From Candidatus Dadabacteria bacterium (GTDB taxonomy: Bacteria > Desulfobacterota_D > UBA1144 > Nemesobacterales > CSP1-2): a stretch of DNA of 64,000 nucleotides. The DNA is taken from assembly GCA_963805855.1 (NCBI GenBank), contig CAWDVW010000007.1, forward strand, positions 391,457 through 455,456. Reading direction: 5' to 3'. The notes beneath the pieces were generated by a model. That model saw only the letters and a program-made list of their open reading frames with translations. It was not told the origin of the DNA and made no database searches. A program made the translations under genes and the position numbers. Numbering within the stretch: the first letter of the stretch is position 1; each line of letters starts with the position of its first letter. Shown here piece after piece: positions 3,601-59,662 of the stretch.

Positions 3601-4391
3601 ACAATGACGCTCAAGATTTATTAAAAGAGATCATAGCCGAAAAACGATTCCGGGTGGGAGCGGTGACCGGCATCTGGCCGGCCAACAGCGTAGGGGACGA
3701 CATCGAAGTTTATGTTCATGAAAAGAGTAATAAGATTTTAGGTACATTTCACTTCCTCAGACAGCAGCAGGACGACGCCGATAAACACGTATTTCATAGT
3801 TTGGCGGATTTTATAGCGCCCAAAGGTTCAGGGCGAAATGATTACTTTGGGGGTTTTGTAGTGACTGCCGGTTGGGAAGTGGAGACATTCGCGGCTACCT
3901 TTTCTTCTAAACATGATGACTACCATGCAATTATGGTAAAAGCCCTCGGTGATAGATTTGCTGAGGCGCTGGCGGAATTGATGCATAAACGGGCGCGTGA
4001 TAATTGGGGATTTGGAATGGACGAAGGTCTTACCTACGATGACTTAATAAAGGAAAGGTATAGGGGGATACGTCCGGCGCCGGGTTACCCATCATGTCCT
4101 GATCATACGGAGAAAGCCCTGCTATGGAAGCTACTCAAACCGGATGAAAATATTGGTGTAGTTCTTACTGAAAATTTTGCGATGAATCCACCCAGCTCGG
4201 TTTCTGGTTGGTATATCGCTCACCCGGAAGCTAAGTATTTTCATTTAGGAAAAATAGACCGTGATCAGGTTGAGGATTATGCTAAGAGGAAGAACATGCC
4301 TCTGCATGTCGTTGAAAAATGGCTGCAGCCAAATCTCGGATATGAACCTTCGGAATTCTCACAGCAAATAAAAGTAGCAGGGAAGCCCTAA
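642..4391 (+). CDS. metH: Cobalamin-dependent methionine synthase (1249 aa: Hcy-binding, pterin-binding, B12-binding and AdoMet-activation domains)
   Basis: Full-length MetH architecture. The N-terminus [12 protein letters not shown] is Hcy-methyltransferase-like, GCCGTTP is the Zn-site Cys motif, and a B12-binding region (..[10 protein letters not shown].., GGATTS) precedes the C-terminal activation domain. Confidence 0.95.
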
Positions 4392-4436
4392 ATATTTCTG
4401 GTAATTAAGATAAAGTCGAAAGAGTTATCCGTTTAT

Positions 4437-4838
4437 TCAGCCCTCAGCAGGTAGTACGGAATACTTTCTGAGTATCTCCCGGAGATCTATTGAAAATCTT
4501 GATCTGGGAATTACAAGATCACAACCCGCTCTATCAGCTTCCTTTTTTAATTCGATTTGAACGTGCGATAAAAATCCGATCACTGGAATCTGTTTAAGCT
4601 CACTGCTAGATTTAATGCTTTTTATAATTTCGAGAGGGCTGCCGGCTCTGGAATTGAGATCAAATATGATCAGAGAGGGTTTTTCTGATAATATTTTCTC
4701 TTTAAACCCGTCCGGGGTTTTTACAAATTCCAGGTCTATGTCAAGAGTCTTGGCGGCTTCTCTAATCTTCGACGAGAAGAAGAGATCATCCAATACAGCT
4801 AGAATCTTTTTTCTGTGATTTTTCCTTTCACTAATCAT
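4437..4838 (-). CDS. Single-domain response regulator (CheY-like receiver only)
   Basis: 133 aa. Acidic pocket LAVLDD and phospho-acceptor LIIFDLN are present. No output domain and no kinase gene lies adjacent. Confidence 0.7.
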   Translation of the reverse strand: MISERKNHRKKILAVLDDLFFSSKIREAAKTLDIDLEFVKTPDGFKEKILSEKPSLIIFDLNSRAGSPLEIIKSIKSSSELKQIPVIGFLSHVQIELKKEADRAGCDLVIPRSRFSIDLREILRKYSVLPAEG

Positions 4839-5083
4839 TAACCTTTACGTAAATAGAGTGTATATTAAAGGTGTTTTTTATCAATATGATTTAGCCTGCT
4901 CAGATCCACTGAGAAATTTAGCTATTGCAAATCAGCAGTGAGAAGTTAATGATGTCTCTTAAGGGCCCCGAAGTTGTTGAGTTGTTCGAGGATTGATAAT
5001 ATGTGGATTGAAGGATGCCGACTCGCGACTTTGAACGTCTGATGTATGACTATTTCTCTTGATACCTCTGTGGTTGACTGGAA

Positions 5084-5806
5084 TTGCAAGTGAAAGACAA
5101 TAATCGAATCAAGGCTATTTTTTTCGATGCCGCCGATACCCTATTTTATATAAGTGATGGTCTCGGGAATGTCTATTCTTCGGTAGCAGCGAAATACGGA
5201 TCAACCCCGGATCCCAAATTGGTCAAGGCCGCGTTTTCAAATGCCTTCCACTCAGCACCACCTTTAGTTTTTGGTCGACTTTCTTCTGAAGAAAGAAGGG
5301 TATCTGAAAAGAAATGGTGGTACCGCGTGGTTGAAGACGTTTTTCAAGAAGTGGGCATGTTTGACAGATTTGACTCATACTTTGACGAGCTATTTGAGCT
5401 TTTTAGACATGGTGCATGGAAATTATTTCCTGAAACTCATGGTGTATTAAACTCGCTCGAGAAGCGGGGCTTCAAATTAGGCTTAATTTCAAACTTTGAT
5501 ACGAGGGTGTACGATGTCTGCCAAGCGCTGGGTATATATAAATATTTCAGGTCGTTTGTGATCTCTAGTGAAGCTGGATTCGCAAAACCCTCACCCCAAA
5601 TTTTTGAAATCGCCCTTAATGAGCAGGGTGTATTGGCGGAGGAGTCTATTCATATAGGCGATAGTATAGAACATGATATACTGGGGGCAAAAACCCTGGG
5701 CATAAATGCTGTGTTGCTTGATAGGGAAGGAAAACATAAACACAGGGATGATATCTGGAAAATAAAAGATCTGAGAGGCGTTTTTCAAATTTTAGGTGAC
5801 TCTTGA
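5084..5806 (+). CDS. HAD-superfamily hydrolase
   Basis: N-terminal IFFDAADTLFY (motif I variant), ISNFD (motif II-like) and a C-terminal GDSxxHD motif. A TTG start is predicted at 5084, with an alternative GTG at 5090. Confidence 0.7.
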   Translation: MQVKDNNRIKAIFFDAADTLFYISDGLGNVYSSVAAKYGSTPDPKLVKAAFSNAFHSAPPLVFGRLSSEERRVSEKKWWYRVVEDVFQEVGMFDRFDSYFDELFELFRHGAWKLFPETHGVLNSLEKRGFKLGLISNFDTRVYDVCQALGIYKYFRSFVISSEAGFAKPSPQIFEIALNEQGVLAEESIHIGDSIEHDILGAKTLGINAVLLDREGKHKHRDDIWKIKDLRGVFQILGDS

Positions 5807-5836
5807 ACATGTAAATTAATTCCTTGGAGGATCATC

Positions 5837-6277
5837 ATGAAGACTGCAGGATTAGCCTTACTCGTAGCATCAATATGGGGCATTACGCCAATATTTGAAA
5901 AACTAAGTTTGGAAAGGGCTTCCCCTCTTACCGTGATAACGTTGCGTTTTATATTTACGGCTACGTGTTTTGGCGTTTATTCGGCCATAACGGGAGGGTA
6001 TAAGGATTTCGGCTCTTTAGACGGGAAAACTCTACTCTACATCATTCTTGCCGCCGTTTTCGGCGGCATTATTGGTCTACTCATATTTTTCACCGCGCTC
6101 AAGCAGGATTTTACCACGAAGATAGTACCTATAGCTGCTACTTTCCCACTGTTTACCGCCCTCTATGCCTTTATGTTCCTCAACGAGCATATCTCATCTC
6201 CGAGGCTTGTCGGAATTATCCTCATAGTAATTGGATTGATTCTAGTAAATTGGAATAGCCTTAGCTATTCGGATTAG
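5837..6277 (+). CDS. Small EamA/DMT-family membrane protein (single EamA repeat, about 4 TM)
   Basis: 146 aa, strongly hydrophobic, with EamA-like glycine-rich helices. A good SD GGAGGA lies 5 nt upstream. Confidence 0.6.
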   Translation: MKTAGLALLVASIWGITPIFEKLSLERASPLTVITLRFIFTATCFGVYSAITGGYKDFGSLDGKTLLYIILAAVFGGIIGLLIFFTALKQDFTTKIVPIAATFPLFTALYAFMFLNEHISSPRLVGIILIVIGLILVNWNSLSYSD

Positions 6278-6468
6278 TCATGTTTTTTAGTTTTTCCAAT
6301 ACGAGTAAAGAGTACGAACGCCATGGCCGGTCTTTTCGAGGAATCTCTCATAGCAAATTGAACAGTATCTAATTTCCAGCCCTTATTAACCCACGTATTT
6401 ATCACAGCTTCCAGGTCCTCTGCCGTCACGGTTGCTAATTCTACCACCTTGTAAGTAGTCTTTGTCAT
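6274..6468 (-). CDS. Small DUF4177-like protein
   Basis: 64 aa, [11 protein letters not shown]...KGWKL pattern. It overlaps hemB by 4 nt (translationally coupled). Confidence 0.5.
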
Positions 6469-7472
6469 TGCGCGTGCTTGGAAGAGCCCAATAATCTTGC
6501 GGCTTCCTTGGCAAAATAGGAAATAATGATATCTGCCCCCGCTCTCTTTATGCTAGTTAACATCTCCATAACCACTAGTTTTTCATCTATCCAACCGAGC
6601 CTGCCTGCAGCCTTAACCATCGAATATTCACCACTGACGTTATAGGCGGCAAGCGGATAGTCGAACTCTTCCCTGGCCGCTCTTATAACATCAAGATATG
6701 ACATTGCGGGTTTCACCATCACGATGTCCGCACCCTCCTCAATGTCGAGGGCAATTTCACGCAAAGCCTCTCTAACGTTGGGCGGATCCATCTGATATTC
6801 TTTCCTGTCGCCAAATTCGGGCGAGGACTTCGCAGCCTCTCTAAATGGTCCATAGAATGCGGATGCGTATTTCGCTGAATACGACATTATTGCCGTATCA
6901 ATTAAACCATTCTCGTCCAGTGCGCTTCTAATAGCTCCAACACGGCCGTCCATCATGTCAGACGGGGCGACAATATCAGCCCCAGCCCGTGCATGCGATA
7001 ATGCGATCTGTCCCAGATACTCGAGTGTTTCATCGTTATCCACTTTACCCCCTCTGATTATCCCGCAATGGCCGTGACTGGTATATCCACACATGCAAAT
7101 GTCGGTTATTAGCACGATGCTATCAAACCTCTCCCTTATTTCCCTTAACGCCCTCTGGATAATGCCGTTTTCATCGTAAGCCTCCGATCCCAATTCATCT
7201 TTCAACTCAGGAACCCCAAACAAAAGGATCGCCTTAATTCCAAGTTCCTTTAACTGTTTTATCTCCTTTATTGCATTGTCTATTGACTGTCTGAATATTC
7301 CCGGCATAGAGGTAATCTCCTCTTTAAATCTCTTACCGGGAGCGACGAACATCGGATAGACGAAATCATCCACGCTTAATTTAGTCTCACAAACCATTTC
7401 ACGGATGTGTTTATTTTTCCGCAGTCTTCTTGGACGATAATCAGGGAAGTGCATATTAAATCTGATTCTCAA
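6465..7472 (-). CDS. hemB: Porphobilinogen synthase (delta-aminolevulinate dehydratase)
   Basis: RPRRLR N-terminal motif, Zn-binding Cys cluster [14 protein letters not shown], and the active-site region VMVKPA.... Confidence 0.93.
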
Positions 7473-7698
7473 ATAATCTTATTTTAGATTTCAATATAAC
7501 AAGTTTTTATATTTATGAAAAGGCTTGTATGCGATAAATTAGTCAAGCAATCGCAAAAACAGATTGCCCCCATCACCACCCCGAGTGAAATAGTCCTGTA
7601 ATATTTTCGTTGCACCTGTTCCCGCAATTGTAGATGTTAGATACTGCGAGGATAGTCCCTTAGGTGCTAAATGGGCCTTCAAAAATGCCGACGAATTC

Positions 7699-7748
7699 GT
7701 AGGGAACGCATCCTTCGACCGAGCTCAGGACAGGTCTGCGTTCCCTAC
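7699..7748. repeat. Palindrome copy with a nested insert: GTAGGGAACGCA-[TCCTTCGACCGAGCTCAGGACAGGTC]-TGCGTTCCCTAC
   Basis: Both palindrome arms are intact. The 4-nt loop is replaced by a 26-nt module that also occurs at 13286-13307 and 51556-51578. Confidence 0.85.
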
Positions 7749-7768
7749 ATTTCGCCTCATATAATTTG

Positions 7769-7837
7769 TTGGTAACGCTCTGCTAATGTTAAAGGAGGTT
7801 GCTTCGACCGACAAAGTCAGTCTCGCAATGACATGAG
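7769..7837 (-). repeat. Element-1 repeat copy (TGTCATTGCGAGA...CGAAGCAACCTCC...CATTAGCAGAGCG), reverse orientation, adjacent to the palindrome
   Basis: The reverse complement aligns with copies at 29577-29632, 30048-30100, 30133-30200 and 32464-32530. Confidence 0.8.
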
Positions 7838-8026
7838 AGACCACTTCTACTGGTACCGATCCTTTAAACCTAGCCTGAGACTTATTGATTAAATTAATTC
7901 CTTCTTATTGAAATGCCTTCGTCCATTGAGTTAAATATAGCCTATTGAAAATTTAAAATAAAAAAGGACCAATTATTGGTTTAGTATTTTTTTAAGTCAT
8001 ATTTATCCACATAGAAATAATTCTCG

Positions 8027-9181
8027 ATGAAAGCGAAACATAACGAAAATCGACCCATCGTCGGCATCATAGGCGGAGGGCAGCTCGCCAGGATGACAGC
8101 CATTGCCGCATACAGACTCGGTATAGAAATAGCTATTTTGGACCCCGACATAAAAAGTCCTGCAGGACAAATAGTGCGAAAAATCGTGATTGGATCTATA
8201 AATGATATTAGAACGTTGGAAGAGCTATCCAGAATAAGCAGCTTGATTACACTAGAAAATGAGTTTGTCGATGCACCGTTGCTGGAAAAGATTGAGTCGT
8301 CAGGAGCTATTGTCTTTCCTTCGTCGAAGACCTTAGGATTGATACAGGACAAACTCACCCAAAAGCAGACTTTGGAGTCAAGTATGATAGGGGTTCCAAA
8401 ATTCATGGTGGTGTCGGATGAGAATGATATTCTTGAAGGCGGGAGAAAATATGGATGGCCGGTAATTCTCAAGGTTAGGAGGAACGCGTACGACGGTAGA
8501 GGCAATGAATCGATCAACGGTCCGGATGAGATACATTCGGCATGGAATAACCTTTACGGTGATAAACGTGATTTTATGGTTGAAGAATTTATTAGATTTA
8601 AAAAAGAGCTTGCAATTATGGTTGTAAGAAATACAAAGGGTGAGTCAGCAACATACCCTGTGGTTGAAACCATTCAAAAAGACCACATTTGCCACATAGT
8701 GAGGGCTCCCGCAGGTATCGGTGATGATATTAGTACAAACGCGGCAAATATGGCCAAGAAAGCGATTGAAGCGATTGATGGCATAGGGGTATTCGGAGTT
8801 GAAATGTTCCTCCTGGAAGATGATAGGGTACTCATAAATGAAATTGCTCCACGACCCCACAATTCAGGGCATTACACAATCGAGGCCTGCGTTACATCAC
8901 AATATGAAAATCATTTACGTGCCATTCTGGGTTATCCTTTGGGCTCGACCAGTATGGTGAGTCCCGCAGCCGTGATGGTTAACTTACTCGGCAGCGGCGA
9001 TGGAGAATCAGTTGTTAAGGGACTTGATGAGGCTTTAAAGGTTACAGGCGCTCATATTCATATATACTGTAAGGAGCACACTCGGCCGAATCGTAAGATG
9101 GGTCATCTCACAGTACTGGGGCAAAACATTGAAGAATCGTCCGACAGGGCACTTAAGGCTGCAGGCATGATATCCTTCTGA
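8027..9181 (+). CDS. purK: N5-carboxyaminoimidazole ribonucleotide synthase
   Basis: IVGIIGGGQLARM N-terminus, ATP-grasp fold, and the C-terminal MGHL motif. Confidence 0.92.
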   Translation: MKAKHNENRPIVGIIGGGQLARMTAIAAYRLGIEIAILDPDIKSPAGQIVRKIVIGSINDIRTLEELSRISSLITLENEFVDAPLLEKIESSGAIVFPSSKTLGLIQDKLTQKQTLESSMIGVPKFMVVSDENDILEGGRKYGWPVILKVRRNAYDGRGNESINGPDEIHSAWNNLYGDKRDFMVEEFIRFKKELAIMVVRNTKGESATYPVVETIQKDHICHIVRAPAGIGDDISTNAANMAKKAIEAIDGIGVFGVEMFLLEDDRVLINEIAPRPHNSGHYTIEACVTSQYENHLRAILGYPLGSTSMVSPAAVMVNLLGSGDGESVVKGLDEALKVTGAHIHIYCKEHTRPNRKMGHLTVLGQNIEESSDRALKAAGMISF

Positions 9182-13276: not shown

Positions 13277-13334
13277 GAACACATATCCTTCGACTACGCT
13301 CAGGACAGGTATGCGTTCCCAGGTTTTGTTTTTC
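13277..13334 (+). terminator. Rho-independent terminator for pyc, built from a degenerate palindrome/insert repeat copy
   Basis: Stem GGAACACATATCC ... GGTATGCGTTCC around a loop containing TCCTTCGACTACGCTCAGGACAG. It is followed by CAGGTTTTGTTTTTC, 14 nt after the stop codon. Confidence 0.6.
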
Positions 13335-13641
13335 AATAGATCAGGTTAACCATCGAGTATTTGAATCAGTCTACAAAATTAGCAATTAACTATTTTTCTA
13401 TAGTATTCCTTACTACTCGTACCGATATTAGTCAGATTTTCTATATCGGCTTCCCATTTTAGTGGATTATATCTGATATATTCCCTGATTTTGTTAAAGC
13501 TTCTTTCGGTTCTGATTATATGATCGTAGAATGATTTTTGCCATTGAAATTTACTATGTTCGCATGAATACCTGATTTTACGGGTAACAGATGATTTGTA
13601 TTATTGTACTATAGTCGATAATAGCATCTTTGTCCTGTTGG

Positions 13642-13669
13642 GTAGGGAACGCATATATGCGTTCCCTAC
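13642..13669. repeat. Perfect 28-bp palindrome GTAGGGAACGCATATATGCGTTCCCTAC, copy identical to 551-578
   Basis: Exact match. It lies between the convergent pyc and ICMT-methyltransferase genes and is a candidate bidirectional terminator hairpin. Confidence 0.9.
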
Positions 13670-23902: not shown

Positions 23903-24742
23903 TCAGAACCCGATCCTTATCTTCCCATTAGAGGCTATGAGGTCATAACCTTTATCCGCTTCAAACTCTGACCAGTGATAGGGTACGCCGTCAAAATGTA
24001 GAATATCGCCACCGGCTTCCTTCACAAATAGCACTCCGGCGGCAATATCCCAGAGAGAGATTCGCGTAGTAATGTAGCAATCCGAGCTTCCCATACCCAC
24101 GTAAGCGAGCTCGATTGCCGCCGAGCCAAGCTTACGGGCATCTTTAACATCCAGGAAAACCCGTTTAATTATGCTTAATACACGCTCTTTATCCGTTTCG
24201 CCCCCTTCACAATACAAAACATAGGCTCGCTCAAGCATATCATTTTTGGACACATTAACCATTCTTGATATGCGTCTGAAAAGATCATGGTGATATGCGC
24301 CTTTGTTCCTCATAGCCACAAATCTTTCAGCTAACATTGGGGCCTCAATAACCCCTAGCAATGGCTCGCCATTAACCCACAGGGAAATTGATATTGCGAA
24401 CAGAGGGTTGTGATTTGCAAAGTTGCCTGTCCCGTCTAAAGGGTCAATAATCCAGAGGTAGTCCTTTTGTCTCGCTGTAAATCCGCTTTCTTCGGTAAGA
24501 TAAGAATGGTCCGGAAAATTGTTCTCAATTGCTTCCCTGATAATTTTATCTGAAGTTTCATCTTGAATGGTCTTTAATTCCTTTACAGTCCCCCTTTCAA
24601 CGGGCTCCTCGCTCCTGTAAGATTCCAGGATCTTTCGTCCCGCCTTTTTTGCGATTGATATAGCTCCCCTTAAAAATCGTCCCTCGTTTTTCGAAATCCT
24701 TTTGTAAATCATATCTTCCATAATTCCCATTAGGTTTATCAT
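23903..24742 (-). CDS. Inositol monophosphatase family protein (SuhB-like)
   Basis: WIIDPLDGTGNF metal-binding motif and a WDIAAG motif. It sits immediately upstream of der in the same orientation. The start may be an internal Met. Confidence 0.85.
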   Translation of the reverse strand: MINLMGIMEDMIYKRISKNEGRFLRGAISIAKKAGRKILESYRSEEPVERGTVKELKTIQDETSDKIIREAIENNFPDHSYLTEESGFTARQKDYLWIIDPLDGTGNFANHNPLFAISISLWVNGEPLLGVIEAPMLAERFVAMRNKGAYHHDLFRRISRMVNVSKNDMLERAYVLYCEGGETDKERVLSIIKRVFLDVKDARKLGSAAIELAYVGMGSSDCYITTRISLWDIAAGVLFVKEAGGDILHFDGVPYHWSEFEADKGYDLIASNGKIRIGF

Positions 24743-24946
24743 ACATAAAATTACTACGATACTTAAGTAAGCTTTCGCCGAATATGCGGATTATACATTC
24801 CCAAATCGTCAGAAAATCTGGGCAAACCGAAATCAGGAATCAGCAGATGTCTGGCGGAAGAAATAGATTGGACCTTGAGTTTCAGTTATTGTTAATATGT
24901 TCTTAACTTCTCCTCAAATGATGAAGTGTAAGCGGAGGGATGTGAA

Positions 24947-25876
24947 ATGAGGTTGTCGTACGCCCTGGCTTGGGTACTGATTTCCTTTTTTATTTTCAGA
25001 AATGTAGCCGCTCAACAGGATTTCATTCAAGAATACATTATATCTGGTAAGACTATTGAAGTCGTTTTTGGTGCCTATGGGTTCACTAATTCCGAATGGA
25101 TCGGACGATGTGAGCCTGAAATAGCCAGTAAATTATGCGGCAAAACATACACCGGGAATTACAATAAAGAGCTGCGTACATGGGAATTCAGTAAGCTCGA
25201 TGAAGATACGGGAAACGTCGAAACATTCAGCTCCCAGGCATTAACAAAGGGTGATCCTGCTAACTACAGGATCTTAATTTGGGACGAGGAGTTTAGCTTC
25301 GACGAGAAGGGTAATGTCGTACACTCGGGCGACGGAAAAGTCGCCCACATTTCGCCCGGCGATCTTACGCCGATAGCCCATAGACCCGAGACGGATGAAA
25401 TCGGAAAAACAGATATTAGAAATTACAGACAGGAGGGAATTGATTTTCTCCAAGATTATGAATACCAGAAAGCAATAGAAAGTTTCGACAAGGCGTTAGA
25501 GGCAAACCCAATGGATAAGATTCTTTATTTTTACAGGGGTTACTCATATTTGAGATTAGAAGAATACGAAAAGGCGGTGGCAGACCTGGAAAAGGCGACA
25601 ATCCTGGATCAAACTAATGCAGATGCATTTAGCAGCCTTGCAGCTGCATATCTGGAGCTAAAGGAATATGAAGATGTGATAAGAACCGCTACAAAAGCCA
25701 TTATCCTTAACCCAAAGGACGCCGCTAGCTATTTCAATAGAGGTATCGCATATAATTTCACACATAAATTTGATAAGGCTTACAGTGACTTCAGCGAGGT
25801 CGTTAGCCTGGAACCCACGAATGATGACGCGATCGTAAATCGGGATTTGTTATTAAAAAAGGTTCAGAGCGAATAG
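24947..25876 (+). CDS. Secreted TPR-repeat protein
   Basis: Signal peptide (..FRNVAAQQ). The C-terminal half contains several 34-aa TPR units (AIESFDKALEANP..., AVADLEKATILDQ..., AYSDFSEVVSLEP...). Confidence 0.7.
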   Translation: MRLSYALAWVLISFFIFRNVAAQQDFIQEYIISGKTIEVVFGAYGFTNSEWIGRCEPEIASKLCGKTYTGNYNKELRTWEFSKLDEDTGNVETFSSQALTKGDPANYRILIWDEEFSFDEKGNVVHSGDGKVAHISPGDLTPIAHRPETDEIGKTDIRNYRQEGIDFLQDYEYQKAIESFDKALEANPMDKILYFYRGYSYLRLEEYEKAVADLEKATILDQTNADAFSSLAAAYLELKEYEDVIRTATKAIILNPKDAASYFNRGIAYNFTHKFDKAYSDFSEVVSLEPTNDDAIVNRDLLLKKVQSE

Positions 25877-26241
25877 ATGAATCCTGAAATATCGAGTTCC
25901 ACTCGGGTTTTGTCAACGTTTAAATGGTTTTGAAGATGCCGGGTATAAATCGAACTTCAACTAATACTTTACTGGTTAATTTTTAGATGAAAACTAAGAA
26001 TGGGATAAGATACTTATATTGGAATGCTAAGAAAAAGATTTAGCTTCTTGTACGAAATCTAGGAGGAATTTAATAAAGATTCTAATAGATTACATTACGT
26101 ATATTAATGCTTAATATTAGCGTGTGGGTATAATTATCCTGATTTATGAGACTTTAATGTCAAATATTAAAAGTTAAATAAATATGTTAATAGTGTTTAT
26201 CGAATATTAGGTCTCATTCTCCAGGCATAAGAAAATTCATT

Positions 26242-26934
26242 ATGTTAAAGGCAATACTCTTCGACTTTGATGGAATTATTGTTGATGCCGAACCCGTTCA
26301 CCTGACGGCTTTTCAGGAGGTCTTGGGCTTGAACGGTATTTTTCTCTCCGAAGAGGAGTACTACGAAAGATATTTAGCGCTGGATGACAGGACGCTGTTT
26401 TCAAATATTCTAGGGGATAGGAACATGAATTTTGATGACTCCACAATTGAGGATTTGATGGAAAAAAAATCCGAAACTTATGAAAAATTAATACGAGAGG
26501 ACATTAAAATATTCCCCGGGGTTGTTGATTTTGTAAATTCGGTATATAAAAAGTATCTTTTGGGTATTGGCTCTGGCGCCCTAAAGCATGAGATAGAATT
26601 TATACTAGATTATGTCGGGATAAAAGATAGATTTAGTGTGATCGTGAGTGCCGAAGATGTACAAAAATGCAAGCCTGATCCTGAGGTCTTCGTAAAAGCT
26701 CTTCTCAAGATGAATAAGAAACTTCGCCAAGGATCAAAGCCTATACACCCCTCTGAATGTTTAGTCATAGAGGATTCGTCTGCCGGCATCAGGGCCGCAA
26801 ACCTTGCCGGGATGAGCACACTCGCAATAACTAACTCGTATTCGGCCTGCAAACTTTCCGAGGCAAACCTGATCGCCGCTAGCTTGCTAGAAGTGGAGAT
26901 TGGGCACTTAGAAGAGCTATTTAAGATTCCATAG
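26242..26934 (+). CDS. HAD-superfamily hydrolase, beta-phosphoglucomutase-like subfamily IA
   Basis: LFDFDGIIVD (DxDG motif I) and a C-terminal EDSSAGIRAA motif IV. Confidence 0.8.
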   Translation: MLKAILFDFDGIIVDAEPVHLTAFQEVLGLNGIFLSEEEYYERYLALDDRTLFSNILGDRNMNFDDSTIEDLMEKKSETYEKLIREDIKIFPGVVDFVNSVYKKYLLGIGSGALKHEIEFILDYVGIKDRFSVIVSAEDVQKCKPDPEVFVKALLKMNKKLRQGSKPIHPSECLVIEDSSAGIRAANLAGMSTLAITNSYSACKLSEANLIAASLLEVEIGHLEELFKIP

Positions 26935-27025
26935 ATACAAAGCGTTAATCTTTGTAATAAAATGGGGGAGGTTGTAGACCAATCTTACTTTAAAATTTAA
27001 CTAATATTACAAGTATAATTAAGTA

Positions 27026-27787
27026 TTATACGTAACCCGATGATATTAAATTAATTATTTCTGTAAATTTAGAAACTGTGTGATTAGGATGGTATTTTTG
27101 ATCATAGATTTCTTCATCTTTTCTATTAATCCAAATAACATCCATTCCGACCGCTTTTGCACCTACAACATCCGCATAATAATTATCGCCGACATATAAG
27201 GCGTCGGCGGGGCCTAAATTTAGCAGCTCCAGGGCCTTCAAAAATATCTCAGGCCTCGGCTTTCTCCACCCTACTTCTACCGATATTACAACTCTTTCGA
27301 AGTACCTTCGTATATCAAATTTGTTTAGGAGCATGTAGGCTGCGGGAGCGTAGTCGAAATTTGAGATAATAGCCATCCTATCATTCTTGTCGAAAATAAG
27401 ATCTAATACATCTCTGTTCTTCTCTGGAAACTCCATTGTGCTTGAAAGGCTCTTCATATGCGCCTTAACCATCTCATCTACTACCGGGTCGGCATCTGAA
27501 CTTAATTCAATTCCTAAACTGCTCATCAGAATCTTGAACCTTTCCCCATTGTAAAATTCCTTATTGTCAATGGATTTTAGTTGTTGGAATGTTTCATAGC
27601 TTTCGATGAATGAAACATGAAATTTATCCCTATCGTATCCTTGATAGTATTTTTGAAACACCTTATATACCTCGGTAAATGTCGAATTATGTTTCTCACC
27701 GTCTATAGAAAACTCCGGGAGACGAGATCGATTAAAATCAATAAGGGTATCGAAAAGGTCAAAGACGAATACTTTATAATCCTTCAT
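27026..27787 (-). CDS. HAD-superfamily hydrolase
   Basis: FVFDLFDTLIDF motif I, ISNFD motif II and GDNYYADVVGA motif IV. Confidence 0.75.
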   Translation of the reverse strand: MKDYKVFVFDLFDTLIDFNRSRLPEFSIDGEKHNSTFTEVYKVFQKYYQGYDRDKFHVSFIESYETFQQLKSIDNKEFYNGERFKILMSSLGIELSSDADPVVDEMVKAHMKSLSSTMEFPEKNRDVLDLIFDKNDRMAIISNFDYAPAAYMLLNKFDIRRYFERVVISVEVGWRKPRPEIFLKALELLNLGPADALYVGDNYYADVVGAKAVGMDVIWINRKDEEIYDQKYHPNHTVSKFTEIINLISSGYV

Positions 27788-27832
27788 AGAAATATACGAA
27801 ATGTTTTATAAGAAAGGTTTGTTGGTGATGCT

Positions 27833-28276
27833 TTACTTAAATCCGTTGCCATTTGCCCTCTCGAGAACAACTTTAAGGATTTTATTATGTAACCCAAGAG
27901 GTGCGGTGACTCTGTATGAAACTTGCGGATGCTTTTTTGCGGCTTCTTTCACCATATTCGGTATATCCTGTGTTGAGTGTTTGCCCGGGAAGAGAAAATA
28001 GGGATGCACTATAATTTCGTCTGCGCCATCGGCTACGCATGCGTCGAAGGTCTGCGAGATTGTCGGCTCGGCGAGTTCCATGTGGGAGTAGCGCACTATT
28101 TCAAAGTCGCACTCATGGTCTTCTCTCAACATTTGTATGATTTGCACAAGCATATCATTTGCTTCATCCACAACACTGCCATGATCTACAATTATTAAAG
28201 CCCTTTTCTTTTTTTCCATTTCGATATTTGAACTAACACAGAATACGCGAGGAAGACTATATCCCTCATCATGCAT
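27833..28276 (-). CDS. cbiX: Sirohydrochlorin cobalto/ferrochelatase, small CbiX type
   Basis: ALIIVDHGS N-terminus and HPYFLFPGKH motif. 147 aa. Confidence 0.8.
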   Translation of the reverse strand: MHDEGYSLPRVFCVSSNIEMEKKKRALIIVDHGSVVDEANDMLVQIIQMLREDHECDFEIVRYSHMELAEPTISQTFDACVADGADEIIVHPYFLFPGKHSTQDIPNMVKEAAKKHPQVSYRVTAPLGLHNKILKVVLERANGNGFK

Positions 28277-28302
28277 GGTGCATCATGTATCCTGCATCCT
28301 TT

Positions 28303-29451
28303 TCATTCCCCGCCGGCATTTAATTTTATTGTTTCTATAAGAATCTCTGCGGCTCGATAAAATTCCTCTAACACAAGGTATTCATTGACGGTATGAAGCT
28401 CATACATTCCGGTACCCAGGTTAGCGCATTCGATACCCATTTGATTGAAAAAGTTGGCGTCGCAACCTCCACCGCTGGTATGGTAGTTTATCTTATGTCC
28501 AAGGTCCTTAACTGCCCTGTCAATTATCTTTACAATCCTCGAATCTTCAGGAACATCCATCTTGTCGTAACTTCTTTCAAAAACCTCCTCGACACTGGCA
28601 GCCTGATTCTGACTATCAAGAACTACCTCGTAGTTTGAGACCGCGTTTCTGATACATTCCATCATGTGATTTTTCTGGGCGACCAGTTTAGCTTCATTGT
28701 GGCTTCTGACCTCGCCTACGATTTTCACAAAATTGGGAACTATGTTTGTAGCGATACCACCCTTTATTACTCCGATATTAGCCGTGGTTTCGTGATCTAT
28801 TCTACCAAGCTTCATTTTAGATATTGACTCGCTTGCAATCTTTATAGCATTAATACCGTTTTCCGGACATAAACCTGCGTGAGCTTCGAGACCGTGTACG
28901 TGGAATTCCAGCCTCTCAGCAGACGGGCATCTGAGTACGAGGCGAGAAGGAGAGCTGCTGTCGAGAACTATTCCGTACCTCGAGGTGAATTTTGATATGT
29001 CCATATGCTTTGCGCCCAGAAGGCCTATTTCCTCGCATATAGTAAACGCGACCTCTATATCTCCATGCGGGATATCCCGCTGCCTCAGGGTCCGCAGCGC
29101 TTCGACTATTACGGCTATGCCGCTCTTATCATCGCTTCCGAGAACCGTAGTACCATCGCTCTTAATAAAACCATTATCAATTCTTGGTTTAATTCCCTCC
29201 CCCGGACCAACGGTATCCATATGGGCAGACAGGAAGAAAGGCTCGATATTTGCTTTATTCCCCTTAATCTTTACAATCAGGTTCCCCGTATTTCCATTAA
29301 CCTTATTGCCCGCGTCGTCGAAAAAGCACTCGGCGCCCAGGTCCTCCATGTCGTGTTTCAATTTTAGTGCAACTTCTCTTTCCTTCCGCGAAAGGCTATC
29401 GATCCTGATCAGATCCAGTACGTATTCGGTCATCCTTTCCTTCTCGATCAT
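28303..29451 (-). CDS. M20-family metallopeptidase (peptidase T / tripeptidase-like)
   Basis: HMDTV metal site, the DDKSGIA motif and an EEIG general-base motif typical of M20. 382 aa. Confidence 0.8.
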   Translation of the reverse strand: MIEKERMTEYVLDLIRIDSLSRKEREVALKLKHDMEDLGAECFFDDAGNKVNGNTGNLIVKIKGNKANIEPFFLSAHMDTVGPGEGIKPRIDNGFIKSDGTTVLGSDDKSGIAVIVEALRTLRQRDIPHGDIEVAFTICEEIGLLGAKHMDISKFTSRYGIVLDSSSPSRLVLRCPSAERLEFHVHGLEAHAGLCPENGINAIKIASESISKMKLGRIDHETTANIGVIKGGIATNIVPNFVKIVGEVRSHNEAKLVAQKNHMMECIRNAVSNYEVVLDSQNQAASVEEVFERSYDKMDVPEDSRIVKIIDRAVKDLGHKINYHTSGGGCDANFFNQMGIECANLGTGMYELHTVNEYLVLEEFYRAAEILIETIKLNAGGE

Positions 29452-29576
29452 TATTTCAGTACTACTCCACTTTTTATGGTTTTTATCAAATCAAGTATAA
29501 CTAATTATTATTTGTCGGTTAAATTCAAATGAATAACCCTTGGGTAGGTTATCAAAACATAAAAACGCCTGAACCG

Positions 29577-29632
29577 TCATTGCGAGAAACGTTGTGCTTC
29601 GAAGCAATATCCTTCGGCATTGGCAGAGCGTT
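29577..29632 (+). repeat. Element-1 repeat copy (GTCATTGCGAGAAACG..TGCTTCGAAGCA..CGAAGCAATATCC..CATTGGCAGAGCGTT)
   Basis: Member of a family of six or more copies. It contains the internal palindrome TGCTTCGAAGCA. Confidence 0.8.
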
Positions 29633-29819
29633 TGATTATCCATTCCATTATAGGATTAACCTAGCAGATTGCTTCGCCAGCCGTTCGCTGTGCTCCGGCT
29701 TAGGCTCGCAATTGTAAATGTTAGATATTTCGTGGACAAAATCCTAACAAGAATAAATTTCCTGGAAATCTGCTTATCCGTCATCCTCGAATGTTTTAAT
29801 CGGGGATCCATTGTTTAAT

Positions 29820-30038
29820 CTTTCATTTTCTTTGTCTTGATACAAAGAAACAAAAATCAAGGGCTTACAAAAAATTAGGAATTATTAAATCAATTCCTCC
29901 AGCTAAAAATATTTAATCCAACCACAACCCCAAATCTTTTTTTAACGCTGGAGGAATTGATTTTGGCAATTTTTTGAATGCCCGTTTAAGAACTAAGATA
30001 CTGTCCCCGAATTACGTAACATCTACAGCAATGACAGG
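29820..30038. repeat. Copy 1 of a ~220-310 bp mosaic intergenic repeat unit (hairpin CTTTGTCTTGATACAAAG; CAAGGGCTTACAAAAAAT; TTTTTAACGCTGGAGGAATTGATTTTGGCAATTTTTTGAATGCCCGTTTAA; ACATCTACAGCAATGACAGG)
   Basis: Same module order as 51525-51836 (219 versus 312 nt, the difference being indels between modules). It contains a 17-bp perfect inverted repeat, AAATCAATTCCTCCAGC at 29887-29903 versus GCTGGAGGAATTGATTT at 29947-29963. Confidence 0.75.
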
Positions 30039-30047
30039 AATATGGCG

Positions 30048-30100
30048 TGTCATCGGGAAAAGGAAACCACGAAGCAATCTCCTCCACCTCTGGCAGAGCA
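30048..30100 (+). repeat. Element-1 repeat copy (degenerate left arm)
   Basis: ..CGAAGCAATCTCCTCCACCTCTGGCAGAGCATT.., same orientation as copies at 29577 and 30133. Confidence 0.7.
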
Positions 30101-30132
30101 TTGTGTTTTAGTTGCGATTAAGGACTTTTTAC

Positions 30133-30200
30133 TGTCATTGCGAGAAATCCCGAGCCAGATCGAAGGGCACGAAGCAATCTCCTAAAACATTGGCAGAGCG
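30133..30200 (+). repeat. Element-1 repeat copy (TGTCATTGCGAGAAATC...CGAAGCAATCTCCTAAAACATTGGCAGAGCG)
   Basis: Best-conserved copy. Together with 29577 and 30048 it forms a same-orientation three-copy cluster in the 818-bp gap upstream of the fetAB 3' end. Confidence 0.8.
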
Positions 30201-30269
30201 TCGCACAACGTGTTTTCAATGTTAGGGGGTCAAGACAATCAACGAATTGGGCGTTTTCCCCACCGGCCA

Positions 30270-31067
30270 TTATAGGGCTTCCTCAATAAGCTGATGATCC
30301 TGCGTGAAGTATCTCCTAAATCTGAGATGCGTAAGTATAAAGGATGAAGAAGCCACAGAGAACGCAATCATATACATTATGATGATCTGATACTTAACTG
30401 CTATAATAGGTGAAACACCCGAGAGGATTTGTCCGGTCATTATTCCTGGGAGAGACACTATTCCCACCACCATCATAGAGTTAATTGTTGGAATCATAGA
30501 AGCCTTCATCGCTGCTTTTATACACGAAGAAGCAGCCTGTTTGGCGGTTGCCCCCAGCGCCAGGTAGGCCTCAATCTCGCTTTTCTTATTCCTAATGTCC
30601 GAGTCAATTCTCTCGACCGCTAATGTGGCGCCATTCATGCTATTTCCGATTACCATACCTGCCAGCGGTATCAGATAATGTGGTTCATACCAGGGTTTTA
30701 TTTGCAGGATGACCTGTGTGACCAGAAAAACGCTGATTCCCGATCCTGTTGTCAGTGCGAAACCTACAAGGTACGGCAACTCCTTAGTGTGCTTTACCTG
30801 TCTTTGAGAAACTGTGATAGCAGCGATTATAATCATTACTGCGATCGTAATAAGGATTATGTACCATCTATCTAAAGCGAAAATGTATTTTAATATATAA
30901 CCTATAGCAACCAGTTGAATCAGGGTTCTCAGCGCCCCGATTGCGAATTCTCTTTCGAGCATCAAGTTTTGCCACCTTGACATTCCGATGGCTACAGAGA
31001 TTAATCCAAGTCCGATGAGAAGATCTATATAGCTTATATTTACAAGCGTGTAATTAAACGCTTCCAT
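30270..31067 (-). CDS. fetB: ABC-transporter permease, FetB/YbbM (UPF0014) family
   Basis: 265-aa multi-TM protein with the conserved LIGLGLISVAI..RTLIQL pattern of the YbbM/FetB family. It sits directly downstream of its ATPase gene. Confidence 0.7.
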   Translation of the reverse strand: MEAFNYTLVNISYIDLLIGLGLISVAIGMSRWQNLMLEREFAIGALRTLIQLVAIGYILKYIFALDRWYIILITIAVMIIIAAITVSQRQVKHTKELPYLVGFALTTGSGISVFLVTQVILQIKPWYEPHYLIPLAGMVIGNSMNGATLAVERIDSDIRNKKSEIEAYLALGATAKQAASSCIKAAMKASMIPTINSMMVVGIVSLPGIMTGQILSGVSPIIAVKYQIIIMYMIAFSVASSSFILTHLRFRRYFTQDHQLIEEAL

Positions 31068-31069
31068 AT

Positions 31070-31780
31070 TTATACAGTAATCCCCTGTGTGTTATGAGTC
31101 CTGAAAAACTCCTCCGATAAACCCTCGTGCAGTATCACGCCGTTATCTATCTGGATGATTTGTCCGCCAAAAAATCTCGCATGGGCGAGTTGATGAGTGA
31201 CCATAATAACCGTGATCCCGATGAGGCTGTTCAACTGACTTATTGACCGTAACAGGCTTATTGCGGAAGTGTGATCCAGGGCAGACGTTGGTTCATCCAA
31301 TAGCAGTACTTCAGGCTTGTTGATGAGCGTTCGTGCTATGCTCAGGCGTTGCTTCTCACCGACAGATAGCTCAGATGCTTTGCGTTCGAGAAAATCGACC
31401 TTGAGTTCAGACAACTTAAGAACATGCTTTATTTCGCTTTCATCAGGAGGGTTCTCAACAATCCCAAGTTCGTAAGGAACCATAAGGTTGTCCCTTACAG
31501 TTCCGTCAAACGTCACAGGAATCTGAAAAACCATTCCGACTTTCTTTCTGAGTTCGATAACCGGAATGTCTAAAATGTTTTGTTCATCAATCAATATATC
31601 TCCGGCAGTTGGATCATCCATCCGGTTCAGAAGCCTGAGGAGCGTTGTCTTGCCTGCTCCTGACGGACCCAGTATGTTGTATTTTTTCCCGGAGTGAAAT
31701 TTGAGATTTATATCCCTTAGTATCGGAATCCCGCTTTTGGACTTGCCAACATCTCTTAGCTCAAATTTTATATTGCTCAC
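31070..31780 (-). CDS. fetA: ABC-transporter ATP-binding protein (FetA-like)
   Basis: Walker A GPSGAGKTT, ABC signature LSVGEKQRLSIAR and Walker B LLLDEPTSALD. Confidence 0.85.
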   Translation of the reverse strand: MSNIKFELRDVGKSKSGIPILRDINLKFHSGKKYNILGPSGAGKTTLLRLLNRMDDPTAGDILIDEQNILDIPVIELRKKVGMVFQIPVTFDGTVRDNLMVPYELGIVENPPDESEIKHVLKLSELKVDFLERKASELSVGEKQRLSIARTLINKPEVLLLDEPTSALDHTSAISLLRSISQLNSLIGITVIMVTHQLAHARFFGGQIIQIDNGVILHEGLSEEFFRTHNTQGITV

Positions 31781-31872
31781 TTAATCTCTTTTTTGAGTAC
31801 AAGACCCAAGGCAAAGAAATTGTCTAACGCTCTTTTAAAAATAATTATTCCCGTGCAACAAAGCCATTTTTA

Positions 31873-32241
31873 ATCTATCAATTGTATGGCTTCATCGAAC
31901 TCTTCTGCCATGCCCGGGTGACCGTGCTTGTACGCAGCTTCTATCCCTTTTATATAAGCCTCTTTCGCTTCTTCCTTCCTGTCCAGCTTCAAGAGAGCCT
32001 CAGCCAGCATCCGGTACGCTGCCCCCTCATCGTCTTTTAACGTGAAATAAACCCTGATTTCATCTACAGCTTCCTTATACTTGCCCGCCTTGAAATATTC
32101 GTTAGCAAGTCCATACCTGTTCAGGGAATTACCTGGATTTTTTTCAACGAGCGCTTTGAAGGTTTCGATTCTATTTGTAATTGTTATTTGTCTCCCGTTT
32201 TCATTTTTTCGGATCGCATTCGAAAGAATAATATATGAATT
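31873..32241 (-). CDS. TPR-like helical-repeat protein ORF lacking a canonical start codon (possible ATT start at 32181, or a frameshifted gene)
   Basis: Open frame of 123 codons by my translation (...NRIETFKALVEKNPGNSLNRYGLANEYFKAGKYKEAVDEIRVYFTLKDDEGAAYRMLAEALLKLDRKEEAKEAYIKGIEAAYKHGHPGMAEEFDEAIQLID*). It is absent from the ORF track because the frame contains no ATG, GTG or TTG before Met at about residue 80. A strong SD GGGAGA sits 9 nt upstream of an in-frame ATT. An out-of-frame ATG (MKTGDK*) lies just upstream. Confidence 0.35.
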
Positions 32242-32415
32242 TCATCCGTTAGTACAAAAATGAATTTAGCCTGCGAGCTCCTTGCTGCCTCTACAGGGCT
32301 TCCACTGTCCGATTATTACCTTTCGAGCGCAGCCTAGAGGGTCCTCGCGGGCGACTTCGATTAACTCAGTGCAGGCTCGGCGAAGCAATCCATGATCATT
32401 TGCGTAAATACAATC

Positions 32416-32443
32416 GTAGGGAACGCAGATCTGCGTTCCCTAC
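32416..32443. repeat. Palindrome variant GTAGGGAACGCAGATCTGCGTTCCCTAC (loop GATC)
   Basis: The arms are identical to the copies at 551 and 13642; only the loop differs. It is followed by ACATTT...TTGGTAAC and an Element-1 copy, the same arrangement as at 7699-7837. Confidence 0.9.
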
Positions 32444-32463
32444 ATTTTTTTACATATAGTTTA

Positions 32464-32530
32464 TTGGTAACACTCTGCCTAGCGTGGAGTAGATTGCTTC
32501 GGAAAAAGCGTTTCTCGCAATGACAGTAAA
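32464..32530 (-). repeat. Element-1 repeat copy (reverse orientation), followed by a partial second copy at 32553-32595
   Basis: The reverse complement is CTGTCATTGCGAGAAACGC...CGAAGCAATCTACTCC...GGCAGAGTGTTACCAA. The partial copy is CAATGCTCTGCTAATGTTGAAGGAGAATGCTTC. Confidence 0.8.
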
Positions 32531-32757
32531 AAATATTCAATGGTAGCGGGTGGGCAATGCTCTGCTAATGTTGAAGGAGAATGCTTCAGGACTTTCTCAG
32601 TCCCTCCCAGCGCCGGGAAATTAAGAATTGACACAGTTGCATCTCCGATAGGTATGCGTTACGCTAAATGGATCGATAATGATTTTATGAAATAAGCTAT
32701 ACTCCTTCCGAGTAAAAATATATGATTTAAGAATTTAATTATAATTCATAAAACAAG

Positions 32758-51360: not shown

Positions 51361-51524
51361 AGAATTGATATTTTACATATCGCCTGTAGAAACGTAAATA
51401 TCATTTCTCGGTGGCGAGGGAGAATATTAGGTTTAATATGAGTGGTGATATCACCGTAGACGTTAGATCTTTGGGGGGCTAGAATCTATAGGTATTTATT
51501 TCAAATTAACCATAACTTTTACAA

Positions 51525-51836
51525 TATTTACTTTGTCTTGATGCAAAGTAACAACCCTTCGACTGTGCTCAGGACAAGGGCTAACAAAAAATGCTTGCGT
51601 ATCGAGCGAATGCGAGATATCAATTGCTAAAATATTTAATTAGTTCTCTCAGTCACTTTGTTCCTTCGAGAGATGACAGTAATGATCGTCACTTTTTTTA
51701 ACGCTTCCGGAATTGATTTTGGTAATTTTTTGAATGCCCATTTAAACCAATTCAATTGGGCGAAGGTTCAGGAAATAGTGCGTTAAAAATTAAGATGTTA
51801 TCCACAAATAATGTGACATCTCCAGCAATGACTGCG
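51525..51836. repeat. Copy 2 of the ~220-310 bp mosaic intergenic repeat unit (CTTTGTCTTGATGCAAAG; CAAGGGCTAACAAAAAAT; TTTTTAACGCTTCCGGAATTGATTTTGGTAATTTTTTGAATGCCCATTTAA; ACATCTCCAGCAATGACTGCGG)
   Basis: Module order and sequence match 29820-30038. It additionally carries the TCCTTCGACTGTGCTCAGGACAAGG module seen inside the palindrome at 7711-7736. Confidence 0.75.
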
Positions 51837-59272: not shown

Positions 59273-59662
59273 CTAATTCTCCACCTTGAGTTGTTTATCA
59301 AAAGTTATCAATTTAGCCTCTTCATCCCTCACAAACTTCAGAAGCAGCACATCATTGTAATTAAGCTCTCCATTACTCTCAATAACCCCATCTGCTACCT
59401 CAGCATGAATTTCCTGCATGTTTTCGAGCCAGATAACATTTATGTTTGCCTCAAGCTCTTTCAACTTTCCTAGGGCTTCTTTACAGTCGTATTTCCTTTC
59501 CCTACACCTTCTTGCTATAACCGAGTATATTTCTGAAAGATTGGTACTAAGAACATAAACTCTCTCATTCCCGAGATCTTCTATTATTCCTACCGCATTT
59601 TTGTGATGGGCGTCTTTTTTATCAAGAAGAGCCACTATGATGTTTGTATCTAGAACTATCAC
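59273..59662 (-). CDS. PIN-domain ribonuclease (VapC-like toxin)
   Basis: MIVLDTNIIV (first acidic residue), central E, and YNDVLL / FDKQL acidic residues in PIN spacing. The GTG start overlaps the upstream gene's TGA (GTGA). Confidence 0.8.
   Translation of the reverse strand: MIVLDTNIIVALLDKKDAHHKNAVGIIEDLGNERVYVLSTNLSEIYSVIARRCRERKYDCKEALGKLKELEANINVIWLENMQEIHAEVADGVIESNGELNYNDVLLLKFVRDEEAKLITFDKQLKVEN

Follow-up and report, generated by a model that had tools for sequence, protein, structure and literature searches.

E1, a REP-like extragenic repeat of a Candidatus Dadabacteria lineage, probably a module acting at the DNA level

Introduction

A stretch of 64,000 nt from a Candidatus Dadabacteria bacterium (GenBank assembly GCA_963805855.1, contig CAWDVW010000007.1, positions 391,457 to 455,456; the window, below) contains six copies of a short dispersed repeat, herein designated E1. 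We conclude that E1 is probably a lineage-specific module of repetitive extragenic DNA, similar to the REP (repetitive extragenic palindrome), BIME and REPIN elements, and that it acts at the DNA level and not as a gene. The variant with a 3' tail is found only in this lineage, while its core represents a very widespread class of REP-like repeats. An earlier note on the window, made from the letters alone, had suggested a possibly undescribed family: this may hold for the E1 form with the tail, seen only in this lineage, but not for the core, which belongs to the widespread class.

Results

E1 copies in the window

A covariance model was built on 23 E1 copies and the window was scanned with the filters off, which gave exactly six full-length copies, all of them intergenic and spread over three intergenic regions. 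These regions lie between hemB and purK, between the genes for an M20 peptidase and a UPF0014 protein, and between the gene for an ABC transporter ATPase and an open reading frame (ORF) of no assigned function. The best-scoring copy is copy D at 7775-7833 on the minus strand (70.7 bits in cmsearch), followed by copy A with a CGTC tag (29575-29631, plus strand, 66.2 bits), copy C with a long centre (30133-30201, plus, 60.1 bits), copy E (32470-32525, minus, 54.2 bits), copy F (32557-32615, minus), detected at 48.1 bits though outside the model-building set, and copy B (30048-30101, plus, 46.4 bits), of which block 1 (TGTCATCGGGAA) and the centre are decayed. The unit is about 57-69 nt in length. 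The three conserved blocks of E1 were each in excess within the window, with 20 matches to block 1 against 7.0 expected, 9 to block 2 against 1.6 and 5 to block 3 against 1.0; for none of the three did any of 100 dinucleotide shuffles give as high a count.

With three blocks enriched over shuffles and six matches to the model, the dispersed family with conserved ends and a variable centre, as described in the earlier note, is genuine. Its variable length applies to the centre between blocks 1 and 2, but the distance between blocks 2 and 3 is fixed at 13 nt. What had been taken for a partial copy at 32553-32595 is the full-length copy F with a decayed block 1; its block 2 is also decayed and its central hairpin, GGGACTGAGAAAGTCC, is intact. 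The palindrome TGCTTCGAAGCA noticed within copy A (29594-29605) is real, but it is private to copy A among the E1 copies. Copy D has the best-formed central hairpin of the window (GACTGAC/GTCGGTC), and its folding as DNA gives both helices described below. The six copies are mostly old: blocks are decayed in two of them, the centre is weak in the majority, and one doublet has been split by a miniature inverted-repeat transposable element (MITE).

The possibility, raised in the earlier note, that the copies were restricted to this locus is refuted by 42 further copies elsewhere. The window shares about 88-91% DNA identity with a metagenome-assembled genome (MAG), JBAUII01 (Thermodesulfobacteriota bacterium MFD09513), and among the loci retrieved (L numbers below), E1 with its 3' tail was present only in the window, in this MAG and in 12 JGI metagenome contigs. 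The total is 48 copies, 42 of them distinct, with six in the window and 42 in the JBAUII01 loci and the 12 JGI contigs.

Structure of the E1 unit

E1 starts at the 5' end with an unpaired TGTC or CGTC tag; the tags among the 48 aligned copies were TGTC (31 copies), CGTC (6), AGTC (4) and GGTC (2), those of the other five being decayed. The tag is followed by helix 1, an invariant stem of 5 bp formed by ATTGC and GCAAT, and by a conserved internal loop with GA on its 5' side and GAA on its 3' side. The apical hairpin, helix 2, is free in sequence and keeps its pairing, with a stem of 5-7 bp and a loop or extension of 3 to 27 nt; examples are GAGACTT/AAGTCTC, GACTGAC/GTCAGTC, GGGAC/GTCCC and GAAAC/GTTTC. 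The unit ends in a 3' tail of fixed length, CTCC-N6-NTT-GGCAGAGCRT.

The pairing of ATTGC with GCAAT, proposed in the earlier note, was confirmed, the stem being invariant and paired in 95-100% of cells (94.7% in the 48-copy alignment). Since helix 1 never changes, it gives no covariation evidence either way. Helix 2 behaves differently. In a MAFFT alignment, 90% of the cells of the two-helix structure were paired and six of the seven pairs of helix 2 showed compensatory changes; none of 500 shuffles reached the observed covariation, and slid partners paired in 15-48% of cells. In the model-guided alignment of 48 copies, compensatory changes were detected in all seven pairs of helix 2, with 86.7% of its cells paired; for both helices together, the covariation was again reached by 0 of 500 shuffles, and slid partners paired in 17-47% of cells. 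The compensatory changes for which the earlier note had proposed to look are thus present, in helix 2, and because these pairs covary the variable centre is a second stem and not the plain loop that had been supposed.

Helix 2 includes 10 G·T and 8 A·C pairs, and these nearly equal counts favour neither strand. The folding of the window copies of E1 was not more stable than that of shuffles (z from -0.6 to +0.9), and well-preserved copies in JBAUII gave z values of -1.9 and -2.7. A third helix between CTC of the tail and GAG of block 3 was proposed by RNAalifold, but its columns are devoid of covariation and it is not claimed here.

Doublets and composite arrangements

In both the window and the MAG of about 90% identity, E1 forms one arm of inverted doublets, the partner being a tail-less core unit, GCAGATTGCTTCG..CTCGCAATGAC. 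From the flanks of 30 E1 copies and from alignments, at least three recurrent contexts (Types I, II and III) were defined. The Type I composite is about 235-240 nt long, occurs in at least nine copies in JBAUII and shows a mean pairwise identity of about 85%. From left to right it consists of a hairpin (CCCTGCAGCAAGCTGCAGGG), about 30 nt, E1, a spacer (TTGATTAYCCATTCCATTATAGGATTAACCTA), the inverted tail-less partner, a second hairpin (CCCTGTAGCAAGCTACAGGG) and AATTCACTAGTTA, so that the composite is bounded by two CCCTGYAGCAAGCTRCAGGG hairpins. These bounding hairpins are similar and in direct orientation, and they differ by a compensatory change from C-G to T-A (CTGCAG/CTGCAG against CTGTAG/CTACAG). 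An inner imperfect inverted repeat, GGGTATCATAAC...GTTTGATTACCC, brackets E1 within the Type I composites. No transposase was found in the seven composites aligned (L041, L054, L083, L086, L089, L092 and L104). Two loci, L069 and L101, open with one and the same sequence (positions 1-120) inside an E1 or Type I copy at the end of a JBAUII contig, which suggests that the repeats break the assembly of the MAG.

Type II consists of E1, a linker of about 28 nt, a double-foot palindrome of the GTAG type (GTAGGGAACGCA..TGCGTTCCCTAC), a spacer and the inverted partner; copies D and E are its members in the window. Here the palindrome at 7699-7748, with a 26-nt insert in its loop, is joined to copy D by a linker at 7749-7774 (palindrome and linker together, 7699-7774), and that at 32416-32443 is joined to copy E by a linker at 32444-32469 (together, 32416-32469). 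The fixed palindrome-linker-E1 arrangement pointed out in the earlier note is therefore real, at 7699-7833 and 32416-32525, and it recurs at non-orthologous loci of the related MAG (L062, L080 and L086) and in metagenome contig L122. The longer order found at copy E, in which E1, linker and palindrome are followed by a spacer and the partner unit (U2), is common to L062, L080 and L086. Type III, seen in L071, consists of E1, a different spacer and the inverted partner.

A recognisable inverted partner was found in the window only for copies A and E. Copy A forms the first arm in a Type I doublet that has decayed and lost its left hairpin; none of the Type I terminal hairpins is present in the window. 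Its spacer, TTGATTATCCATTCCATTATAGGATTAACCTA, at 29632-29663 (plus strand) is 94-97% identical to the spacer in L041, L086, L121 and L127. Its partner, GCAGATTGCTTCG-centre-CTCGCAAT, at 29664-29712 (minus strand), was detected at 16.7 bits in cmsearch, for the core only, and was aligned to intact Type I doublets; block 1 of this U2 is cut by the MITE, and the remaining GACA of the block lies at 30033-30036. The partner of copy E is a decayed core-only unit on the plus strand, ..TTTCGAG-long centre-CGAAGCAATCC, read from the sequence at approximately 32320-32392.

A total of 88 inverted doublets with outward tags were identified in the 116 loci listed, where they account for most occurrences of the core, and no target-site duplication (TSD) was found around any of these 88. 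The doublets end in perfect inverted termini of 11-12 nt, GTCATTGCGAG...CTCGCAATGAC, and on the opposite strand GTAG is often found ahead of the partner unit (GTAGCAGATTGC). The doublet at L104:6400-6665 folds into a long branched hairpin (-40.2 kcal/mol and z of -3.0 as DNA; z of -2.6 as RNA), in which block 1 pairs with block 1 of the partner and block 2 with block 2 of the partner.

Turnover between close relatives

Two stretches of JBAUII are orthologous to parts of the window, L009 to 894-8121 and L077 to 24501-32313. Copy A and its counterpart, L077:2890-2944, share an upstream flank of about 90% identity and identical blocks; the centre and the 6-nt variable box have been replaced as a whole and the downstream contexts differ. 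This swap of the interior is best explained by recombination or gene conversion among dispersed copies. Copy B, and copy E together with its palindrome, are absent from the JBAUII ortholog regions (comparison with L077, and for copy E with L077:1-340). Copy C has an ortholog of about 76% identity in L077, which is interrupted by the MITE. The intergenic region of copy D also holds an E1 in L009, but the centre and the neighbours of that E1 are not those of copy D. L077:165-223 is the ortholog of copy F; the centre (GGGACTGAGAAAGTCC) is common to both, and blocks 1 and 2 have been lost from the window copy. By these comparisons, the E1 family is dynamic at the DNA level.

The MITE within block 1 of the copy A partner is 315 bp long (29713-30027), with a terminal inverted repeat (TIR) of TGTARATGTTAGATA.TTCG.GGACA and a 5-bp target duplication, GCAAT, at 29708-29712 and 30028-30032. 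The TIR of this MITE is also written TGTAGATGTTAGATA.TTCG.GGACA. Other copies are located at L077 2485-2849, L009 2650-2962 (TSD ATTTC), L127 ~796-1188 and window 51455-51832, and a truncated copy at window 7629-7685 abuts ...CGCAAT. In at least three independent cases, i.e., the window, JBAUII and contig L127, the insertion point was GTC|ATTGC|GAG of a core unit. The JBAUII MITE resides in a different unit and in the opposite orientation to that of the window; with the two genomes about 90% identical, the insertions must be recent and independent.

The core unit in other phyla and in viruses

A pattern scan of species-representative genomes gave more than 116 loci among the matches listed; for many of the non-E1 units, blocks 1 and 2 were prescribed by the search pattern, with helix 2 left unconstrained. 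The core, GTCATTGCGAG-hairpin-CGAAGCAATC, also written GTCATTGCGAG-[hairpin]-CGAAGCAAT in the genome scan, was present in more than 10 phyla and in viral contigs. The hosts include Thermodesulfobacteriota, Desulfomonilia, Alphaproteobacteria (several Bradyrhizobium and Tardiphaga), Planctomycetota, Chloroflexota, Gemmatimonadota, Bacteroidota (Cytophagales, Arcicella), Ignavibacteriota, Melainabacteria, Schekmanbacteria and one bin labelled Methanobacteriaceae. For 75 distinct units from other phyla, helix 1 was 100% invariant, in part imposed by the search, and all seven pairs of helix 2 covaried. The alphaproteobacterial versions mostly have CGTC...GACG brackets, and those of the Bradyrhizobium type end in CCA.

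Among the matches listed, the core was found in more than 120 IMG/VR viral contigs (L129-L248), with up to six copies per contig, and many of these contigs share a portal, scaffold and capsid module. In one viral contig, L136, a 405-aa ORF starting at 2505 on the plus strand reads through a doublet in frame (..SLRVERSNP..LLRRAVGASRNDEAI..), recalling the intragenic RPE insertions of Rickettsia.

Search for a cognate enzyme

One remnant of a REP-associated tyrosine transposase (RAYT) was identified in the window, at 13382-13600 on the minus strand (NCBIfam NF047646, E=1.1e-8, model positions 80-133). It represents the C-terminal half of the protein, truncated and interrupted by a stop, with FQWQKSFYDHIIR...REYIRYNP in the translation. 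On either side of the remnant, which lies 16 kb from E1, there is a GTAG palindrome, one at 13642-13669 and a split one at 13285-13330; together these look like a decayed REPtron. The ortholog, L249/P0001 (JGI contig Ga0055451_10025369), is equally truncated with 84% amino-acid identity, and the 35 relatives found in the database are, without exception, short pieces of 43-126 aa. A tblastn search with an approximate E. coli RayT query, used as a lead, gave the window remnant as the sole match, and one with the 35 RayT-like fragments gave matches only in the window and L249. After all-against-all clustering of 6,753 ORFs from 248 loci, no transposase was detected near the units, the only recurrent families being phage structural modules and histidine kinases. 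The remnant and its palindromes indicate that the lineage has had REP machinery. We infer a mobilising enzyme for E1 also, though nothing ties the REP machinery to E1.

Other features of the window

The GTAG...CTAC double-foot palindrome, GTAGGGAACGCA-loop-TGCGTTCCCTAC, is perfect at four sites, 551-578, 7699-7748, 13642-13669 and 32416-32443. The last of these matches a bidirectional terminator-like pattern. The 26-nt loop insert in one palindrome, TCCTTCGACCGAGCTCAGGACAGGTC, recurs at 13285-13320 and 51556-51576. On the minus strand at 59273-60033, a gene for a PIN-domain toxin (59273-59662) and a small upstream ORF (59659-60033) form a probable VapBC-type pair, unrelated to the repeats.

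Discussion

Relation to named repeat systems

Among named systems, the CGTC-tagged REPs of Di Nocera, De Gregorio and Rocco (2013, PMC3733652) share many features with E1. As described in that paper, these carry a terminal CGTC, often TGTC, an 8-9-bp stem starting with A-T, a loop of 4-5 nt (variable in Bradyrhizobium CGTC-1) and an unpaired CCA tail; they occur mostly as head-to-head dimers in several phyla, with no associated transposase, and the superfamily includes dRS3 of Neisseria, RPE-4 and RPE-6 of Rickettsia and CGTC-1 of Bradyrhizobium. In agreement with this description, E1 has the tag, a stem that starts with A-T and then T-A, head-to-head dimers and no adjacent transposase; the repeats are intergenic with some in-frame intragenic copies, are present in several phyla and serve as a target for mobile DNA. 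The insertion of IS elements into REPs is itself cited there, after Tobes and Pareja, as a known property of REPs. The comparison of the E1 core, ATTGCGAG...CGAAGCAAT, with CGTC-1 to CGTC-4 is one by description and not by consensus sequence. Neither ATTGCGAG nor the peptides derived from it were found in the text and supplements of PMC3733652, and a full-text literature search with the block sequences and the encoded peptides gave only primers and unrelated matches.

The REPIN or BIME systems with their RAYT enzymes (Bertels and Rainey 2011, PMC3116915; work of Ton-Hoang and Quentin, summarised in PMC6006769) resemble E1 in the inverted pair of hairpins with a spacer, the fold into a long hairpin, the tetranucleotide at the foot, the mosaic clusters with other repeats and the persistence with decay at orthologous sites, and a RAYT remnant is present in the window. 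In contrast, the tag of E1 is TGTC or CGTC and not GT[AG]G, GTAG being located on a separate family of palindromes, and it is these palindromes, not E1, that flank the RAYT remnant. REPINs co-evolve with their RAYT and are lineage-specific, unlike the core of E1, which is near-identical from one phylum to another. E1 works like a REP or REPIN, and we class it as a variant of such repeats without assigning it to a named family.

PATE-like elements are palindrome-associated, non-autonomous derivatives of IS200/IS605. The Type I composite recalls them by its two subterminal direct hairpins (CCCTGCAGCAAGCTGCAGGG and CCCTGTAGCAAGCTACAGGG) and by the absence of inverted termini and of an obvious duplication. 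Unlike PATE-like elements, no relative of tnpA or tnpB was found with it; the window is devoid of these hairpins, and E1 also occurs outside the composite.

A model for E1 and the evidence that bears on it

We propose a model in which an enzyme acting in trans would recognise the hairpins of E1 in their single-stranded form; an HUH/Y1 transposase of the RAYT kind, or the enzyme that moves the CGTC-type REPs, would be the likeliest candidate. Recognition would depend on the tag, the stem foot and the GA/GAA loop, with the apical hairpin needing only to fold. E1 would spread as doublets, single copies being remnants, and the copies would spread, recombine with each other, act as landing pads for other mobile DNA and decay. 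We take E1 for junk DNA of a selfish or structural nature, nothing unusual at this locus and of modest interest as a family.

Several observations weigh against this interpretation. No E1 lies beside the RAYT remnant or in its ortholog L249, leaving no enzyme tied to E1, and no RayT-like gene was found near core units within about 1.9 Mb of core-bearing loci. For copies B and E no clean insertion junction or empty site could be defined against the JBAUII orthologs, the regions being too diverged; without such a pair, transposition of E1 itself is not shown, and much of the turnover could have arisen by recombination and gene conversion. The anatomy departs from that of the CGTC-tagged REPs in its 5-bp stem with a GA//GAA loop, a free second stem and a variable loop, and in a tail of CTC(C) in place of CCA with an extra 3' block, GGCAGAGCRT. 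This tail (block 3) has no assigned role. The distance between its GGCAGAG and the core equals that of the GCAGAG which opens the second arm in compact doublets of other phyla; the tail may be the vestige of a truncated second arm, although this spacing was imposed by the search pattern. The apical loops, 71% purine on the E1 strand, give a weak hint of strand-specific folding, also compatible with RNA and confounded by shared descent. Finally, the near-identity of the core across more than 10 phyla is unlike ordinary lineage-specific REPs.

These purine-rich loops, which include GAA and GAAAA types, together with the strong covariation of a conserved two-helix structure and with the argument, made in PMC3733652, that many REPs are transcribed, would agree with E1 being a structured RNA, either a small RNA gene or a cis-acting hairpin of an untranslated region that stabilises or terminates mRNAs. 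Against this, a search of Rfam at the gathering thresholds gave no match in the whole window, and within 29400-30300 none of the matches at E up to 10 overlapped E1. Weak matches to miRNA models in this interval were mostly on the MITE hairpin. The orientation of E1 is random with respect to neighbouring genes, as the upstream gene shares the strand of E1 in 10 cases and is opposite to it in 13; of the 21 settings, 13 were unidirectional, 5 divergent and 3 convergent, and three of the six window copies have divergent genes as their neighbours. There is no excess of sites resembling promoters or terminators, and no E1 is bracketed by such sites; the GTAG palindrome alone is terminator-like. Adding the strand equality of the G·U and A·C pairs, the weak folding of the window copies and the decay of copies, or their interruption by a MITE, in one or other of the two genomes, we regard an RNA function as distinctly unlikely, and the small-RNA family of the earlier note is not supported. 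It is still less likely, though by little, that the doublets are classical MITEs, i.e., deletion derivatives of a DDE-transposase insertion sequence (IS) with terminal inverted repeats (TGTCATTGCGAG) moved by cut-and-paste. The perfect inverted termini, the dispersal with different numbers between relatives and the presence of a genuine MITE with TIR and TSD in the window agree with this origin, but a TSD was found for 0 of 88 doublets, the termini belong to an internal hairpin motif that is also found as single units, no IS with such ends was seen among the clustered ORFs of the 248 loci, and the conservation of the termini across phyla is beyond the range of any single IS family. The term MITE, used in the earlier note, is then acceptable in the loose sense of a non-autonomous repeat but not in the strict sense, since single E1 units have no terminal inverted repeats and doublets no TSD.

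If E1 were bound by a protein of the host, for example a nucleoid or replication factor, and kept by selection at particular intergenic positions, this would account for blocks that stay identical at orthologous sites while the centre and flanks diverge and for the invariance of the core across phyla, and REPs bind IHF, gyrase and Pol I (PMC6006769). We consider this very improbable: decay is seen at orthologous sites (blocks 1 and 2 are lost in copy F, and block 1 of copy B is decayed), the copy number differs between relatives, and the identity of the blocks is explained just as well if gene conversion has kept them evolving in concert. Least credible of all is a role as cassette recombination sites, like the attC of integrons, separating small accessory gene cassettes. 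Its basis is the layout of L071 (1-8000 of JBAUII010000112.1), where five co-oriented partner-E1 doublets, 1.2-2.2 kb apart, alternate with one or two small accessory genes each, for an RTX-repeat protein, a PIN toxin, a DUF2442 protein and a Nal1_C-like protein, as in a cassette array, and the doublets are, as attC, imperfect hairpins with a variable terminal part. The core sites RYYYAAC and GTTRRRY are, however, absent from the doublet ends (TGTCATTGCGAG, CTCGCAATGACA), and on these motif grounds the attC reading of the L071 array was rejected; moreover, the window copies lie between housekeeping genes, single arms and other mosaics are common, and no integrase was seen, though none was systematically searched for.

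A wider alternative concerns the core alone. The unit (C/T)GTC-ATTGC-GA-[any hairpin]-GAA-GCAAT-C might be a single structured DNA element with a recognition surface that is near-invariant across more than 10 phyla and viral contigs, and not a lineage-specific REP; we hold this to be unlikely, if less so than any of the alternatives above. If true, it would imply either an enzyme of wide distribution for which the tag, the foot of the stem and the GA/GAA loop are the recognition signals, or frequent horizontal spread, possibly phage-borne. The orphan CGTC-type repeats would then share one mechanism of mobilisation or maintenance, and E1 would be a local elaboration.

With E1 as a module of REP-like extragenic DNA, the three long intergenic regions of the window are explained as mosaics of decaying mobile and repetitive DNA, and an annotation as small RNA is unwarranted. 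Repeats of the E1 type break metagenome assemblies and yield spurious short ORFs. In E1, a clean example of a REP-like unit, conservation is confined to the tag, the foot of the stem and the purine internal loop, the apical hairpin having only to pair, and this narrows what a cognate enzyme must recognise. That the core is found in viral contigs and in many phyla without a transposase in its vicinity sharpens the question raised in 2013 of what moves or maintains the CGTC-type repeats.

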